From Deltaproteobacteria bacterium (GTDB taxonomy: Bacteria > Myxococcota_A > UBA9160 > UBA6930), in the NCBI GenBank assembly GCA_031396315.1, contig JANNKN010000220.1, positions 1-31,032 on the forward strand: a DNA stretch of 31,032 nt, read 5' to 3'. The notes beneath the pieces were generated by a model that was not told the origin of the DNA, did no database searches, and was given only the letters and a program-made list of their open reading frames with translations. Each line of letters starts with the position of its first letter. Within the stretch, counting starts at the first letter, position 1. Positions 14,683 through 21,068 of the stretch are shown here, piece after piece. The translations under genes and the position numbers were made by a program.

Positions 14683-16953
14683 GTGCCCACGCATCCCACG
14701 CTGCAAGCGCTCGCCTGCCCGGGCGTAAAGGCGCTCGCGCTCGCCCGCTTCGCGCGCGCGGCGGGCGGCACCGCGCTCGTGACGGCGCTGCGCTGGCACG
14801 TTTACGAAGTGGACGGAGAGGCGTCGGCGCTCGGCTGGCTCGGGCTGGTCGAGTTCCTGCCCGTGATTCCGCTCGGGCTGGTCGCGGGCGCACTCGTCGA
14901 CGCGACCGATCGCGTGCGCGTGGCCGCGCTCTCGCAGTTCGGCTTCGCGCTCGCCGCATTCGCGCTCGCGCTCGGCGCGGATTCGGGCCTCGCGGTGCTG
15001 CTCGCCTGCGCGTTTGCGACTGCGGTCTGCAGCGCATTCGAGTTCCCGGCCGTCGCGACGATCCTGCCGAGCCTCGTGCCGCGCGCGATTTTCCCGAGCG
15101 CAGTCTCGCTGGTCGCGACCTCGCGCAACCTCGGCTGGACGCTCGGGCCGCTGCTCGGCGGTGCGGGTCTCGAGTGGATCGGCGTCTCGGGCACGTTCGC
15201 GGCCGCGGGTGGTGTGGTCGCGCTGAGTGCGCTGGCCGTAACAACTCTGCCGCGCGCGCCGGTGACGGGCGAGCGGCGCGAGGTGAGCTTGCGGGCGATC
15301 CGCGAAGGCATCGCGTTCGTGCGGGCGGAGAAGCCCGTACTCGGCGCGATGACGCTCGACCTGTTCGCGGTGCTGTTCGCTGGCGCGACGGCGCTGCTCC
15401 CCGTGTACGCGAAGCTGCTCGATGCGTCGGGGATCTGGTACGGCGTACTGACCGCGGCGATGACGGTCGGCACGTTCCTGATGTCCGCGGTGCTGATGAT
15501 TCGCCCGCCGATGGCTTGGCCCGGCCGCGCGCTGCTCGGCTCGATCGTGGTGTTCGGGCTCGCAACCATCGCGTTCGGGCTTTCGCGCTGGTTCCCGCTC
15601 TCGGTGCTCGCGCTGATCGCAGCGGGCATGGCCGACGAGGTGAGCATGGTCGCGCGCTCGACGATCATTCAGCTCGGAACGCCCGACGCGCTGCGGGGCC
15701 GCGTCTCCGCCGTGAACGCGATCTTCGTCGGCGCCTCGAACGAGCTCGGCGCCGCGGAATCCGGCTTTCTCGCGGCAGCGACCAGCGCGACCTTCTCCGT
15801 CGTGTTCGGCGGCGTCGCGTGCCTCGGCGTACTCGCGATCGTCGCACGCAAGCTCCCGCAGCTCGCGCGCTTCCGCGTGACCGGAGCGATCGCACTCGTG
15901 TTGTTGGGCGCCGCCGCGGCGAGCACGCCGAGCGCGCATGCCGAGACCGGCGTGCGCAGCCCGGCGGGCGAGCGCGCCGCGGCACCGCCCGCGGCCGCCT
16001 CGCTCTACGCGCCGCATCACGGCGACGACGGCTACTTCGTGCCCTGGGGCGAAGACGACTCGCGCGGCCTGGGCGCGTTCTTTCGTTGGCAGTTCGCGAA
16101 GAACGCTTACGGCGGCATGTCGCGCAGCCCGGCGCCGCGCGTCGCGAACGACGGCGCATCGCTCGCGCGGCCGCTGCCGCGTGGCAGTGCGGAGCTCACC
16201 TGGGTGGGGCACGCCAGCTTCGCAGTGCACGACGGCGCGGACGTGTTCCTCACCGATCCGCACTTCGGCGCGCGCGCATTCCTTCCGCCGCGTCTCGTAG
16301 CGCCGGGCGTCCCGCTCGCCGCGATCCCGCACGACGCCTTCGCCGTGATCTCGCACAGTCATTACGACCACCTCGACGCATTCACCGTGAACGCGCTGCC
16401 GGAGGATTTCGCCTGGTTCGTGCCGCTCGGGCTCGCCGAGTGGTTTCGCGCGCGCGGGCGCGAGAACGTGGTCGAGCTCGATTGGTGGCAGAGCGCGACG
16501 CGCGGTCGTTTCACGATCACGTGCGTACCCTCGCAGCATTGGTCGAAGCGCATCGAGCTCGGCACCAACGCGTCGCTCTGGTGCGCGTGGCTGATCGATT
16601 CGGGCGAGCGCAGGTACTACTTCGCGGGCGACACCGGCTACTTCCACGGCTTCGCCGAGGTCGCGCGCCGCTACGGCCCGATCGACGCCGCCCTGCTTCC
16701 GATCGGCGCCTACGAGCCGCGCTGGTTCATGGATTTCCAGCACATGGACCCGGCGCAAGCGCTGCAGGCGTTCCGCGATCTCGGCGCGCGCACGATGTTC
16801 CCGATGCACTGGGGCACGTTCGAGCTGACCGACGAGCCGCCAGACGAAGCGCCGCGCGAGCTGCGGCGGCAGATGCAGCGGCTCGCCATCGACGCGCGCG
16901 AAATCGCGCTGCTCGCGATCGGCGAGACGCGCCGGCTGCCCGCACCTCCTTGA
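14683..16953 (+). CDS. MFS transporter (MFS_3/EntS-like) fused to a NAPE-PLD/RomA-like MBL-fold hydrolase
   Basis: One 756-aa ORF. Residues ~1-398 are MFS (VAGALVDATDRVRV, PDALRGRVSAV). Residues ~450-756 are MBL (WVGHAS, TDPHF, HSHYDH, ELDWWQ, PSQHWSKR, FAGDTGY, PIGAYEPRWFM, HWGTF). Confidence 0.85.
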   Translation: MPTHPTLQALACPGVKALALARFARAAGGTALVTALRWHVYEVDGEASALGWLGLVEFLPVIPLGLVAGALVDATDRVRVAALSQFGFALAAFALALGADSGLAVLLACAFATAVCSAFEFPAVATILPSLVPRAIFPSAVSLVATSRNLGWTLGPLLGGAGLEWIGVSGTFAAAGGVVALSALAVTTLPRAPVTGERREVSLRAIREGIAFVRAEKPVLGAMTLDLFAVLFAGATALLPVYAKLLDASGIWYGVLTAAMTVGTFLMSAVLMIRPPMAWPGRALLGSIVVFGLATIAFGLSRWFPLSVLALIAAGMADEVSMVARSTIIQLGTPDALRGRVSAVNAIFVGASNELGAAESGFLAAATSATFSVVFGGVACLGVLAIVARKLPQLARFRVTGAIALVLLGAAAASTPSAHAETGVRSPAGERAAAPPAAASLYAPHHGDDGYFVPWGEDDSRGLGAFFRWQFAKNAYGGMSRSPAPRVANDGASLARPLPRGSAELTWVGHASFAVHDGADVFLTDPHFGARAFLPPRLVAPGVPLAAIPHDAFAVISHSHYDHLDAFTVNALPEDFAWFVPLGLAEWFRARGRENVVELDWWQSATRGRFTITCVPSQHWSKRIELGTNASLWCAWLIDSGERRYYFAGDTGYFHGFAEVARRYGPIDAALLPIGAYEPRWFMDFQHMDPAQALQAFRDLGARTMFPMHWGTFELTDEPPDEAPRELRRQMQRLAIDAREIALLAIGETRRLPAPP

Positions 16954-17080
16954 TTACCGGGCGAGTGCGGGTGCCCCCGACGGCGAGGACCCTGCGGCCG
17001 CGTGCGCCGCGCTCGGTGCCCGCGTCTACGTCCTCGACTCGGGCGGCGGACTCAGGCCACATCCTGGTAGCGCCTTCGCG

Positions 17081-17797
17081 TCAGCGCGCGGCGCTCGTCA
17101 CCTGCGTGCGCTGCGGCCAAGGGCACGCGCTCGCCTGGCGTTCGTATTGCTCGGCTCGTTCGGAGACTTTGCGCGCGACGCCGAACAGCCACGGCTTCTG
17201 ATCGAAGCTGCGCCGCTGATAACCCGTCGGGCCCTCGTGATAACCGAGATACAGGTGGAAGGCGTCGTGCTTCGGAATGTCTGCGGTACGCGAGAGCAGG
17301 TCCGAGTAGAAGCCGACGAAGTCGATCACGTCGGCGAAATCGTCGCGCTGTGCGTGGCGGTTGCCCGTGCGGTCGCGGTAGTCGCTCCAGGCGGCGTCCT
17401 GCACCTGGCCGTAGCCGAAGGCAGAGGACGCGGGGCCGACGGGAATCACGCCGAACAGCTTGCGCCAGCCGGGGCGTGCTTTTGCGCGGAAGCGCGACTC
17501 CTGATGCAGGATCGCCATCGAGAGTGACGGCGCGACGCCCCAGCGCTCGCGCGAGCGCTCGGCAGCGGCGAGCCACTCGGGCTTCTCCGCGAACAGGCCG
17601 CACAAGTCGTCGAGTTGTTGGGGAGGCAAGTGCGCGCAGGCGAGCGCGAAGAGCCCAGCCGCGATCACCGTGGTCGCGAGCGCGCCGGCGCGCAACGCGA
17701 GGCTGGCCGAGTCGCCTCGGCCCCGCTCACCGCCCCCGGTGCTTCGCTCGCCTTCGGCTCGCTGCGCGCGCCGCTCCGCGTCGTTTGCGTCAGCCAC
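17081..17797 (-). CDS. Transglycosylase SLT-like domain protein, probable lipoprotein
   Basis: MAILHQESRF (catalytic Glu), SSAFGYGQ, RDDFAD and YHEG. Hydrophobic stretch ends FALAC. The GTG start overlaps the upstream stop (GTGGCTGA). The true start may be later. Confidence 0.8.
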   Translation of the reverse strand: MADANDAERRAQRAEGERSTGGGERGRGDSASLALRAGALATTVIAAGLFALACAHLPPQQLDDLCGLFAEKPEWLAAAERSRERWGVAPSLSMAILHQESRFRAKARPGWRKLFGVIPVGPASSAFGYGQVQDAAWSDYRDRTGNRHAQRDDFADVIDFVGFYSDLLSRTADIPKHDAFHLYLGYHEGPTGYQRRSFDQKPWLFGVARKVSERAEQYERQASACPWPQRTQVTSAAR

Positions 17798-18884
17798 CCG
17801 CCGCCCGGCGATCGTGCACGAGCACCGCCTCGCGCGCGTCGAACTGGATCGTCACTTTGCCGAGGCCTGCGCTGCCCTGCACGACGCCGAGGCCGAGCAC
17901 ACTGTGCTGCACGCGGTCGCCCGACGCGAAATGCTCGCTCACCGAGTAATTACGGACGGGGCGCGTGAGGTCGGCATCGACCCGCACGGGCGTCGCTGGG
18001 CCCGATGACTTCTTGCGCTTGCTGGGCAACGACTTCGGACGGACTTTGTCCGCGCCCAGCTCGAACGCGGGCTCGAGGCGCGGGTCGCCGTCGAGGTGAG
18101 GTGCGCCGGTGTCGTACGAGAAGCCCGGATCGCCGGGGCTACGCAGCGTCAGGAACCTCACCGGCACGTCGAGCTTCGCGCCGATCTCGCGTGCGAGTCG
18201 CTCGAGCTCCTTGATCCACGCCGCGCCCTTCTGCGCCTCGCGCTTCCGCGAGAGCTCCCACCAGCGGAAGCTGCCGATCACGAACACTGCGGGCGGCGCC
18301 GGGGAGATCTCTTCGGCGGTCTTCTCTGCGAGCTCTGCCGTGAGCGATTCGCGATTCGCCTCGACGCCCGCGGCCCATGCGAGGCCTTCGAGCAGTGCGC
18401 GCAGCGGCGTGTCCCCCGTCTGCACGCGCGTCGCGCCCGGCGCTAGCCAACGCACCACCGCGACCGCCAGGCGGCCATCGGGCCCGACACCGAGCAGATC
18501 GATCGGCTCGGCGCCCCAGTTCGGATCGTCTACGCCGAGTGCCTCATCCGGCTGCGCGGCCTTCAGGACGGCGCCCGCATGCAGCGCTGCGAACGTGCCA
18601 GCCTCCGGCAGCGCGAGCGGCGGGCCACCCTCCGCGGTACGGGTCGCGAGCGCGAGCGCGAGATGCTCGCTGTCGCGCGCGGGCTTGCGCTCCGCGGCGA
18701 GCTTGCGATTCGCGGCGACGAGGTGCTTGCGTCCACTCTCCGCGCGCCGCGGTGCGGCTTCGCGCTCGGCCGCGAAATCGGCGGCCAGGATCTCTCCATT
18801 CAGCGAGGCGGCGACCGCCTTGAATCCCTTCGCATTGCGCACTTCAGTGGTCGCCGCGCGCTCGAGCAGCGGATGCTTGGCCAC
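17790..18884 (-). CDS. Hypothetical protein: degenerate PD-(D/E)xK-like core plus C-terminal PcrA/UvrD-type Tudor-like domain
   Basis: Strong RBS GGAGGTGA before GTG 18884. Core: EHLALAL...IDLLGV...LAVAVVRW...GDTPLRALLEGLAW. C-terminus: FASGDRVQHSVLGLGVV...GKVTIQF. The CDS is well supported, the domain calls are inferred. Confidence 0.7.
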   Translation of the reverse strand: MAKHPLLERAATTEVRNAKGFKAVAASLNGEILAADFAAEREAAPRRAESGRKHLVAANRKLAAERKPARDSEHLALALATRTAEGGPPLALPEAGTFAALHAGAVLKAAQPDEALGVDDPNWGAEPIDLLGVGPDGRLAVAVVRWLAPGATRVQTGDTPLRALLEGLAWAAGVEANRESLTAELAEKTAEEISPAPPAVFVIGSFRWWELSRKREAQKGAAWIKELERLAREIGAKLDVPVRFLTLRSPGDPGFSYDTGAPHLDGDPRLEPAFELGADKVRPKSLPSKRKKSSGPATPVRVDADLTRPVRNYSVSEHFASGDRVQHSVLGLGVVQGSAGLGKVTIQFDAREAVLVHDRRAAGG

Positions 18885-18917
18885 GCTCACCTCCCCCGGT
18901 TCGATTGGCAGTCGGCC

Positions 18918-18923
18918 ATCATA
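18918..18923 (-). promoter_or_regulatory. Sigma-70-like -10 element (TATGAT) for the 18884 gene
   Basis: TATGAT on the minus strand 33 nt upstream of the GTG. A nearby GAGTT-N6-AACTC inverted repeat (18940-18955) sits around the -35 position. Confidence 0.45.
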
Positions 18924-18992
18924 GGCGAGGAATCTCGTTGAGTTAGGGCGAACTCGGCCAAATCCGGGCAGGCGAGCCCTCGGAGACCGGAA

Positions 18993-19493
18993 ATGAAGCG
19001 CGCGATCTTGCTCCGGCACGCGACCGCCGCCGAGGCGCGCGAGGACGCTCTGCGCGAGCTGACCGCGGAGGGCGCGGCCGAGGCCGCGCGAGCCGGCGCA
19101 AAGATCGCGGCGCTCTCACCCGGCTGGGCACCCACCCACGCGCTCTGCTCGACCGCGCTGCGGGCGAGCGCGACGCTCGCGGCCGCACAGGCGGCGCTGG
19201 CAGAGCTCGCCCGCATCGAGTTCGATGCGCGGCTCTACCTCGCGAGCGCGGCCCAGCTGCTCGCGGCGTTGCGGCGCTTGCCTGAGCACGACGCCTGCGT
19301 GTTGCTGGTCGCGCACGAACCGGGGCTCTCCGATCTCGTGCGCCAGCTCGCGCGCCGGGCCGAGCCGGGTGCGCGCGTCCACGTTGGGGCCGGGATGGCG
19401 CCCGCTTCGTTCGCGGCGCTCACACTCGATGTCGCGCGCTGGCGCGACGTGGGCCCGGGCTGCGCAGAGCTCGCGACCTTCGCGCGACCCTAA
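18993..19493 (+). CDS. sixA: Phosphohistidine phosphatase SixA-like (histidine phosphatase superfamily)
   Basis: LLRHATA (RHG-type motif), LTAEG, CSTALRA, RLYLAS and LLVAHEPGL. Confidence 0.8.
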   Translation: MKRAILLRHATAAEAREDALRELTAEGAAEAARAGAKIAALSPGWAPTHALCSTALRASATLAAAQAALAELARIEFDARLYLASAAQLLAALRRLPEHDACVLLVAHEPGLSDLVRQLARRAEPGARVHVGAGMAPASFAALTLDVARWRDVGPGCAELATFARP

Positions 19494-20080
19494 GCGCTCG
19501 CGCGTTTGCGCAGCACGGAGGCCGCGCGCGCTGCGAGCAGCACCGCGAGCAGCGCGGCGTATACGAGCGGCTCGCGCAAATCCTTCTTCACCAGCCACAC
19601 GAAGTGCAGCACGCCGAACACAGCCGCGGCGTATGCGAGGCGGTGCAGCGCGAGCCAGCGGCGACCGAGGCGGCGTTGCCAGGCGCGCGTCGAGGTGATC
19701 GCGAGTGGAGTCATTAGGACGAGCGCGGCAAAGCCGAGCGTCACGTACGGGCGCTCGACGATCTCCTCGGCGAGTCGCGTGAACGCGAAGCCGAGATCGA
19801 GCGCGAAAAACGTGGCGGCGTGAAGCGTCGCGTAGAGGAACGCGAGCAGACCGAACGTGCGCCGGTAGGGCGCGAGCGCCGCGAGGCGCGGCGAGAGGCG
19901 GCGCAGCGGCGTCACCGCGAGGCACGCGAGCAAGCACTGCAGCGCCCAGGCGCCGGTGACGTGCGTGATCGTCTCCACCGGGTTCGCGCCGAGCCCGCCG
20001 CGCAGCGCGCCGTGTGCGAGCCACGCGAGCGGCGTGAGAGCCGCTGCGATGACTGCGGCGTGAACGAGCTTTCGCCTCAT
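19490..20080 (-). CDS. msrQ: Methionine sulfoxide reductase heme-binding membrane subunit
   Basis: TGAWAL...LAVTPLRR, RRTFGL...YATLH, RPYVT, PLAITS, WLALHRLAY...LHFVW. Directly downstream of msrP. ATG at 20080. Confidence 0.93.
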   Translation of the reverse strand: MRRKLVHAAVIAAALTPLAWLAHGALRGGLGANPVETITHVTGAWALQCLLACLAVTPLRRLSPRLAALAPYRRTFGLLAFLYATLHAATFFALDLGFAFTRLAEEIVERPYVTLGFAALVLMTPLAITSTRAWQRRLGRRWLALHRLAYAAAVFGVLHFVWLVKKDLREPLVYAALLAVLLAARAASVLRKRASA

Positions 20081-20096
20081 CGAGACGGCGCCGCGC

Positions 20097-21068
20097 TCAG
20101 TAGTGCTTCCGCAGGTCCATGCCTTGGTACAGGCGCGCGACCTGATCGGCATAGCCGTTGAACGCCAGCGTCGGCCGCTTGCTCCATTCGCCGATGCGCC
20201 GCTCGCTCTTCTGCGTCCAGCGCGGGTGATCGACGCGCGGGTTCACGTTTGCGTAGAAGCCGTACTCGGCCGCGTTCTCGTCACTCCACGTCGTGCGCGG
20301 CTCGCGCGCGACGAGCTTCAACTTCACGATCGACTTGATGCTCTTGAAGCCGTACTTCCACGGCACGACGAGCCGCAGCGGCGCGCCGTTCTGGCTCGGC
20401 AGCACCCGGCCGTACATGCCGACGGCAAGGATCGCGAGCGGATGCATCGCCTCGTCGAGACGCAGGCCCTCGCGATACGGCCAGTCGAGCGTGCTGCGGC
20501 GCTGGCCGGGCATCTGCTCCTCGTCCACCAGCGTCTCGAACGCGACGTACTTCGCCTGCGAAGTCGGCGCGAAGCGCTTCAGCACATCGCCGAGCGGAAT
20601 CCCCACCCAGGGAATCACCATCGACCACGCCTCGACGCAGCGCAGCCGATAGATGCGCTCCTCGAGCGGGTACTCCTTCAGCAGCGCGTCGATGTCGAGC
20701 ACGCCCGGCCGCGCGACCTCCCCCTCGACCGCGAGCGTCCACGGACGAATGCGTAGCGAGTGCGCGTGCTGCGCGGGGTCTTCCTTGGCGGTGCCGAACT
20801 CGTAGAAGTTGTTGTAGGAAGTGGCGTCCTCGTAACGCGTGAGTGCCTCGCTCGTGCGATAGCCCTCGGGCGCCGGGATCACCTTTGCCAGCTTCGCGAG
20901 CGCGGCCGGCGCGGGCGTCGCAGCGCGCGCCGCGGTGTCTTCACCGCAGCCGAACAGCGCCGCCGCGGAGAACGCGGCGCCTGCCTGCAAGAACGAGCGA
21001 CGGCGCAGCACCAGCGCCTCGGGAGTCACGTCGCGCTCGGGGATCAGGCTCGGACGAATTAGGTGCAT
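20097..21068 (-). CDS. msrP: Molybdopterin-dependent methionine sulfoxide reductase catalytic subunit
   Basis: Tat signal [50 protein letters not shown] and YGFYANVNP. Confidence 0.96.

Follow-up and report, generated by a model that had tools for sequence, protein, structure and literature searches.

A Tudor-tailed protein family with a degenerate PD-(D/E)xK nuclease core in an order of uncultured Myxococcota

Introduction

The 31,032-nucleotide stretch of Deltaproteobacteria bacterium DNA analyzed here (contig JANNKN010000220.1 of assembly GCA_031396315.1, GTDB lineage Myxococcota_A; below, the window) encodes on its minus strand a 364-residue protein that raises a simple question: what is it, where did its parts come from and what may it do? 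A reading made from the letters alone had described it as an orphan uniting an apparently dead PD-(D/E)xK nuclease fold with a Tudor-like domain of the PcrA type. We found that the studied protein is a member of an undescribed family, vertically inherited within one order of uncultured Myxococcota. In this family, a core of PD-(D/E)xK fold was joined once to a C-terminal Tudor module and the active-site residues have largely been lost. Taken as a whole, a domesticated, non-cutting nuclease domain with a Tudor docking tail of single origin is the reading that we favor, with modest confidence.

Results

The Core Has a Restriction-Endonuclease-Like Fold

An AlphaFold2 model was built from an alignment of 35 sequences (mean predicted local distance difference test, pLDDT, 88.7; predicted template modeling score 0.75), in which pLDDT falls below 50 only at residues 288–298 and in the last three residues. 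It begins with a helical region which, according to the alignments, is common to the studied protein and to relatives without the Tudor module (Table 1). The following part displays the α-β-β-β-α-β core of the PD-(D/E)xK superfamily: a helix at residues 68–84 with E73 and H74, strand 1 at 97–105, strand 2 at 128–133 (starting with D129), strand 3 at 139–145, a helix at 160–176 that starts at P160, and strand 4 at 199–205. When residues ~65–272 were compared with 48,161 solved chains by VIA-align, a search independent of Foldseek, every top match was a PD-(D/E)xK nuclease. The best was NucS (2vld; Z 7.6, root-mean-square deviation, rmsd, 3.0 over 108 residues), and the others included Upx, 2okf, SduA, AF1548, VC1899, Can2, McrC, FokI, SfsA, HamA and PaqCI. 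Foldseek against AFDB clusters pointed to DUF91 (NucS-like) proteins (E 2.6e-8, TM-score 0.72 by hit), and the structural neighbors of the core in the Atlas are NucS_C and UPF0102/NERD clusters. The fold proposed for the core from sequence is thus borne out by solved-structure, AFDB and Atlas matches. Its assignment to PD-(D/E)xK, made on the predicted model, is secure since the fold class is unanimous among the matches and the order of elements is canonical.

The closest solved-structure likeness of the core is the C-terminal domain of NucS/EndoMS (PF01939; 2vld, 5gke), from which it differs in lacking a PF01939 sequence match, the NucS N-terminal domain and the catalytic E. A profile of the core searched against PDB sequences returned only a spurious OsmC match, and a NucS_C locus is rare in Myxococcota (1 of 121 genomes). 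The mapping of D129, V143 and R145 to the active site (D160/E174/K176 in NucS_C) rests on relatives that carry ExK (i.e., a glutamate and a lysine two positions apart) and on secondary structure.

The C-Terminus Is a Divergent Tudor Domain of the UvrD/PcrA Type

Beyond a basic linker that is predicted to be disordered, the chain ends in a five-strand SH3/Tudor barrel, which superposes on the solved C-terminal domains of UvrD/PcrA helicases. In VIA-align its closest solved counterpart is UvrD1 of M. smegmatis (9dqs; Z 4.7, 40% identity), followed by PcrA (5dma, Z 4.6), E. coli UvrD with an RNA polymerase lobe (7egs, Z 4.5), Thermus UvrD with UvrB (7egt, Z 4.4) and M. tuberculosis UvrD1 (9dci); the five superpositions have Z 4.2–4.7 and rmsd 1.9–2.6 over 40–44 residues. 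A profile of the family C-termini ranked UvrD/PcrA C-terminal domains as its five best matches among PDB sequences (E 0.002–0.14). Against the source genome, its second-best match was the tail of the resident UvrD (E 4.9e-4), which itself matches PF21196 at 36.4 bits. A structural match to DUF3553 in AFDB was obtained as well (E 6.8e-5). Superpositions and profile ranking thus agree with the PcrA/UvrD-type Tudor that had been suggested for this end of the protein. PF21196 matches below threshold were found in 6 of 21 family C-termini (best E 0.0049); because the Pfam thresholds are not reached, the studied Tudor is a divergent branch of the UvrD/PcrA type and not a certified member. We considered that the tail of the resident uvrD might recently have been copied to give this domain and rejected the idea, since BLASTP between the two Tudor sequences gave no significant match.

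The studied domain has its fold in common with the Tudor of UvrD, PcrA and UvrD1 (PF21196; 5dma, 6yi2, 7egs, 7egt, 9dqs) and with DUF3553 of DinX. With UvrD/PcrA it also shares the signature GDR-x-x-H-x-x-(aromatic or L)-G-x-G-x-V ... F ... K-x-V-L (here GDRVQH...GLGVV...F...LVH) and the placement at the C-terminus of a DNA-acting domain, after a disordered linker. The relationship of DUF3553 and Tudor has been described (PMC6511836), and a weak match of the studied protein to the DinX tail among NCBIfam models fits it. In contrast to the UvrD/PcrA domain, the studied Tudor has two shorter loops, L330 in place of W/F/Y and E352 in place of a critical lysine. It is carried by a degenerate nuclease rather than by a helicase or a polymerase, and is preceded by the motif EADLSRPVRxY, of which D305, R308, P309, R311 and Y313 are near-invariant in the family.

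Within the Tudor itself the conserved residues of the family are H327, L330, G331, G333, Q336, K343, F348, L355 and R359. We aligned the domain manually to PcrA and UvrD sequences, which places the invariant H327, L330, F348 and L355 opposite H681, W684, F705 and the L714/L715 pair of PcrA. In PcrA, H681, W684, K712 and L714 are needed for RNA polymerase binding (PMC5397179). At the matching positions of the family H327 is invariant, L330 stands instead of W, and V354 and L355 are conserved.

Tudor-Less Relatives and a Single Fusion

The core is homologous over residues 1–273, i.e., as a whole domain, to a family of ~260-residue proteins associated with REase-ARP, whose members align to residues 3–273 and have no C-terminal module (phmmer E 1e-10 to 1e-34). 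Common to both are the N-terminal helices, E73/H74, D129, D/E-T-P, the LRALLEGLA helix and W209/W223, and the Atlas TM-score of the comparison is 0.61 over 252 residues. The consensus of these Tudor-less relatives reads EEHLA ... LDYQVPLKA ... GKIDLLG ... VIELK ... DTPLRALLEGLAY; a signature that the sequence-only reading had given for an uncharacterized family (IDLLG...VIELK...DTPLRALLEGLAY) proved to be this very consensus. Among the ExK-bearing relatives examined, two are directly followed by a REase-ARP (PF22558) gene and three are fused to REase-ARP, the fused type being labeled "PGN_0703 family putative restriction endonuclease" in the Atlas. One relative lies amid McrBC, GIY-YIG and toxin-antitoxin genes (locus L007). 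The studied gene, in turn, has no REase-ARP neighbor or fusion and is a vertically inherited core gene, not an island gene; its product lacks the ExK glutamate and DYQ, and has instead the DPN loop, RKREAQKG and the Tudor module. PF22558 was not found in the source genome, although control genomes gave no match either, and REase-ARP is also absent from the orthologous loci L001, L002 and L004. The family is in this way tied to a widespread and equally uncharacterized two-nuclease system formed by the N-terminal domain and REase-ARP.

In a FastTree phylogeny of the core domain, the ExK family encloses every Tudor-bearing protein in a single nested clade, and the fusion of core and Tudor module therefore happened once. 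One 282-residue sequence, probably truncated, groups with this clade. Among ExK-intact proteins, P0148 and P0151 are the closest outgroups, and the basal Tudor-bearing lineages retain DY. Conservation of the glutamate thus ended at the node of the fusion, and erosion of the other site residues came later.

Decay of the Active-Site Motifs and New Conserved Residues

For residue counts, all retrieved homologues were aligned to one hidden Markov model, which gave 56 Tudor-less and 134 Tudor-bearing sequences. Almost every Tudor-less protein has E143 (54), K145 (55) and DY at positions 102–103 (54). In the Tudor-bearing set, E or D is found at position 143 in only 7 proteins, and 16 residue types occur there, including K, R, V and W; position 145 is R in 79 and K in 50, and DY is retained in 10. 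As for the studied protein, the motif series EEH, DYQ, D, ExK and DTP of the relatives reads SEH, HAG, D, VxR and DTP, so that the aspartate of strand 2 (D129) is present and V143-V144-R145 occupies the place of (D/E)-x-K on strand 3. The alignment agrees with the sequence-only reading that V143-x-R145 is the ExK position, and the expectation that loss of ExK would go along with gain of the Tudor holds, as a single event on the tree. Catalysis has probably been lost in the core, judging from its sequence.

Several conserved features are new to the Tudor clade. An inserted loop between strands 1 and 2, opposite a 9-residue gap in the Tudor-less relatives, carries D120-P121-N122 (D in 112, P in 108 and N in 108 of 133 sequences). 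R213 and R215 of a basic motif that is missing from the Tudor-less consensus are invariant in the same 133 sequences, and R153 is a further residue of this kind. The family thereby offers a natural experiment in pseudo-enzyme evolution: after one fusion a nuclease site decayed step by step, and conserved basic surfaces newly emerged meanwhile.

A Family Close to Core in One Order

The protein had been called an orphan, which is wrong. A word-indexed search retrieved 296 proteins at E<=0.001, of which over 100 are full-length with 47–88% identity, so that the family has at least 296 homologues, a lower bound; an exhaustive phmmer search of representatives at 50% clustering gave 330 matches. Where named, the homologues are "hypothetical protein" entries from metagenome bins of Myxococcota or Deltaproteobacteria, and none has a Pfam domain. 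Short phmmer matches that looked like a separate family of small, stand-alone Tudor proteins were rejected as such: they are fragments of the family on short contigs.

With the family profile we surveyed 301 genomes sampled from the phylum. All 9 genomes of the same family have a full-length copy, as do 36 of the 47 of the same order, always one per genome, and 1 of 10 from the rest of the class. The other sampled families of the phylum yielded none and show the C-terminal module alone, except for one partial core-only match (genome G262). The source genome (G000) has a single match and no second copy. The gene thus comes near to being core throughout an order, and a so far unannotated protein family nearly core to these uncultured Myxococcota is now defined. 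Its carriers are known from metagenomes only, which limits its practical value for now.

Existing resources did not recognize it. With the studied protein as query, Pfam gave zero matches even at E<=10, PDB sequences and PADLOC gave none, and NCBIfam gave the single weak DinX match mentioned above; its models did not pick up the relatives. Literature searches on REase-ARP and DUF3553 found no paper describing the family, and there is no Pfam, NCBIfam or PADLOC model for it.

Gene and Neighborhood

The coordinates of the gene, of its parts and of its neighbors in the window are given in Table 1.

Table 1. Features of the studied gene and its surroundings, in window coordinates
Feature	Position	Strand	Basis
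msrP-like gene	20097-21068	-	
msrQ-like gene	19490-20152	-	
SixA-like histidine phosphatase, 166 aa, divergent from studied gene	18993-19493	+	homologues named phosphohistidine phosphatase / PF00300
Shine-Dalgarno sequence GGGGGAGG	18890-18897	-	5 nt 5' of GTG start, read from sequence
Whole coding sequence, 364 aa + TGA stop	17790-18884	-	translation; start backed by homologue N-termini
N-terminal helical region, residues 1-67, HPL...APRR...GKK motifs	18684-18884	-	alignments; model helices 5-63, pLDDT ~90
PD-(D/E)xK (restriction-endonuclease-like) core, residues 68-272	18069-18683	-	model secondary structure and structure matches
H102-A103-G104, strand 1, instead of Tudor-less D-Y-Q	18573-18581	-	alignment
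Clade-specific loop, residues 108-127, between strands 1 and 2, with D120-P121-N122	18504-18563	-	9-residue gap in Tudor-less relatives
D129, retained "PD" aspartate, start of strand 2	18498-18500	-	D in 123/133 family members
V143-V144-R145, degenerate (D/E)xK, strand 3; E-x-K in aligned relatives	18450-18458	-	alignment
Clade-specific basic motif R213-K-R215-E-A-Q218-K-G220	18225-18248	-	family alignment
Basic linker, predicted disordered, residues 283-300, PKSLPSKRKKSSGPATPV	17985-18038	-	pLDDT <50 at 288-298
Pre-Tudor motif, residues 303-313, consensus EADLSRPVRxY	17946-17978	-	alignments
UvrD/PcrA-type Tudor (SH3-like) barrel, residues 316-359	17808-17939	-	VIA-align, profile search, sub-threshold Pfam
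SLT_4 lytic-transglycosylase-like gene, downstream	17081-17797	-	Pfam PF19489, E 2.1e-64
MFS-metallo-beta-lactamase fusion	14683-16953	+	

The open reading frame and the ribosome-binding site that had been reported for the gene were both confirmed. The gene runs from a GTG codon (18884-18882) to TGA (17790-17792), and GGGGGAGG lies upstream. At the same coordinates the plus strand has a frame broken by many stops and no open reading frame, and the G+C bias by codon position matches that of the surrounding real genes (window G+C, 69%). The frame stays open as far as an upstream in-frame GTG at 19019, but the start is placed at 18884 because the N-termini of homologues (MAKHPLLER, MSQHPLIE) begin there. 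The residues quoted in the sequence-only reading are likewise where it had placed them, namely EHLALAL (E73, H74), IDLLGV (D129), AVAVVRW (V143-V144-R145), GDTPLRALLEGLAW (157–170), SKRKK (289–293) and YSVSEHFASGDRVQHSVLGLGVV...GKVTIQF...LVH (313–357). As for the proposed −10 element, the hexamer TATGAT is present at 18923-18918, but a sigma-70 consensus scan of 17000–19600 found no promoter-like site, so that the call as a promoter has the hexamer alone to go on.

The SixA-like gene and the studied gene share an upstream region, a spacer of 108 bp. On the other side, the SLT_4 gene begins, with GTG, before the studied gene has ended, the two sharing 8 nt (17790–17797, GTGGCTGA); the same overlap recurs at locus L001 (7085 vs 7092), and suggests co-transcription of two functionally unrelated-looking genes. 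The order msrP-msrQ-X-SLT_4 recurs at relatives of 73% and 52% identity (L001, L002), not at one of 47% (L004). There are no defence or mobile genes beside the studied gene at this locus. In a close relative, the SixA-like and studied-family genes carry consecutive locus tags (VII78_09050, VII78_09055).

Discussion

We propose that a ~260-residue PD-(D/E)xK nuclease, a partner or fusion of REase-ARP, gained a basic linker, EADLSRPVRxY and the Tudor once, which would have yielded a Tudor-bearing protein without a REase-ARP partner. From the fusion onward the ExK glutamate would have been free to vary, the lysine would have come to alternate with arginine and DYQ would have decayed stepwise; R153, R213-K-R215-E-A-Q-K-G and the DPN loop arose as new conserved features. 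The core would no longer cut and could serve as a module binding nucleic acid or DNA structures, and the Tudor, via its flexible linker, would tether it to a partner in genome maintenance, be it the TGE hairpin of the RNA polymerase beta subunit, UvrB or Ku. The more specific idea of a non-cutting sensor of DNA or R-loop structure, riding on RNA polymerase (or UvrB) by means of a borrowed UvrD-type Tudor tail, is possible and is put forward tentatively; if true, it would add a previously unknown factor, specific to this lineage, to transcription-coupled genome maintenance, and give a dated case in which a defence nuclease became a core housekeeping protein. The logic would be that of nuclease folds that were inactivated and now serve in binding, as in RecC with its nuclease-like domain, and of factors such as Mfd and CarD/CdnL, in which a Tudor-like domain keeps a DNA-binding module on RNA polymerase. 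These are functional analogies only, with no family-level homology to the studied protein (for the Tudor comparison, see PMC5397179). In its manner of action the protein would also resemble UvrD/PcrA and DinX, which are likewise tethered by a Tudor.

Tudor domains of this type are known to bind the TGE β-hairpin in the SI1 of RpoB and the equivalent hairpin of UvrB (PMC8318588), and Ku has been implicated as a partner for the Tudor of UvrD1 (PMC11975281). RpoB of the source genome carries VDEATGEVI in the SI1 region, inside a split of the Rpb2_1 domain, which is a strict match to the helicase-interaction motif [VIL]-D-x-x-T-G-E-[VIL]-[VILT] (PMC8318588). Mfd and Ku genes are present in that genome. 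For uvrB there is only a fragment of the first 65 codons at a contig end (contig C847, 1–195), and a PF12344 search of the genome was empty, because the 852-contig assembly evidently broke the gene.

A number of points weigh against the picture of a docked, non-cutting core. The Z-scores of the core, 7–8, are middling, and the tool warns that such values can reflect a common arrangement; the likeness to NucS_C is structural only. In the tail, PF21196 (gathering threshold 23.9 bits) gave no match in the studied protein and DUF3553 (PF12073, gathering threshold 20.3 bits) reached 13.8 bits (E 0.046, residues 296–364), and the final strand of UvrD (A-x-L-E) is absent. The equivalent of K712 (Geobacillus numbering) is Glu352 in the studied protein and its closest relatives, which here disfavors a salt bridge with the TGE glutamate of the kind made by UvrD; of 133 family members, 100 have K or R at position 352 (77 K, 23 R) and 19 have E. 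Moreover, no UV-repair phenotype follows from removing the Tudor of UvrD or UvrD1 (PMC11975281), so docking is not necessarily an important function. On the tree, the Tudor was gained and the glutamate lost in a single event, and the two hence coincide in time rather than amount to replicated co-evolution. Finally, E73, H74, D129, D158, T159 and P160 have been kept almost invariant from the ancestor (E73 in 120, H74 in 124, D129 in 123 and D158 in 119 of 133 sequences, with E at the last position in 12 more), and the inserted loop has brought a new conserved D120.

This last point is what an active nuclease with a rewired site would predict: E73, D129, D158 and perhaps D120 would hold the metal, K/R145 would bind phosphate, and the Tudor would direct cutting to transcription or repair complexes. 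Cfr10I and NgoMIV, PD-(D/E)xK enzymes whose second acid comes from elsewhere in the chain, provide a precedent, and seven Tudor-bearing members still have E or D at 143. Yet the spread of 16 residue types at that position, the change of K to R in 79 of 134 proteins and the gradual loss of DY point to relaxed constraint rather than to a relocated catalytic residue, and there is no sign of the REase-ARP with which the active relatives are partnered; we regard a rewired nuclease as rather unlikely. The sequence-only reading had also thought of a defence sensor or decoy, and an inactive, immunity-like paralogue of the nuclease that goes with REase-ARP would be another part in defence. Such roles draw on the closest catalytically intact relatives, which are paired or fused with REase-ARP and in one case share an island with genes for McrBC, GIY-YIG and toxin-antitoxin systems. 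A single-copy gene, inherited vertically and near-universal in one order, with the housekeeping neighbors msrPQ, SixA-like and SLT_4 and no adjoining defence genes, does not suit them, nor was there in the genome an active paralogue or a REase-ARP to regulate or mimic, and PADLOC was empty. A defence component is therefore disfavored, and in our view very improbable.

The partner could also be another one, with the Tudor docking on Ku or on nucleic acid instead of RNA polymerase or UvrB and the protein acting as an end-binding accessory of non-homologous end joining or other repair. Among solved Tudor domains the studied one comes closest to that of mycobacterial UvrD1, for which a part in Ku binding has been implicated (PMC11975281); Ku is encoded in the genome, and the lysine of the PcrA type is Glu in the studied protein. 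No linkage to ku or ligD was seen, however, at the studied locus or at the compared loci, and we consider this alternative doubtful, if not quite as improbable as a role in defence.

The pre-Tudor motif and Tudor module also end other Myxococcota proteins, some of them with helix-turn-helix (HTH) or NUMOD1 DNA-binding domains. This distribution fits the linker-motif-Tudor module as a portable docking tag, and if the studied tail docks on RNA polymerase or UvrB, it would be more evidence that the UvrD-type Tudor is one.

Additional Observations

Among the Tudor-less proteins, P0153 (267 residues), the sister of the Tudor clade, has also lost the ExK glutamate (A-x-E), so decay of the active site may have set in before the Tudor was acquired; the branch of P0153 is long, however, and its placement unsure. 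In two loci (L007, 4634–8035; L008, 948–4349) an ExK relative and REase-ARP lie between conserved genes of 360 and 112 residues, the function of which is unassigned. This cluster, which has no PADLOC match, may be an undescribed multi-gene defence cassette.

The strict helicase-interaction motif occurs as well (FYVLDRATGELL) in two secreted, β-propeller-looking proteins of the source genome (contig C71, 12711–12737; contig C658, 24–50). In B. subtilis, the propeller proteins YxaL and YwhK bind PcrA. The FYVLDRATGELL matches on C71 and C658 are probably a common motif of propeller blades.

Proteins of ~330–630 residues from other Myxococcota genomes (L029, L030, L031, L039 and L040) end in the linker-motif-Tudor module. 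They have a conserved zinc-ribbon-like VECxxCxxRHRxR before it and N-terminal parts without a Pfam match, and several belong to genomes of this order in which the full-length family is missing. In two more (L035, 151–1488, minus strand; L037, 387–1679, plus strand) the module is fused to NUMOD1/HTH or Cro/C1-type HTH regions, an architecture that would fit transcription factors docked on RNA polymerase.

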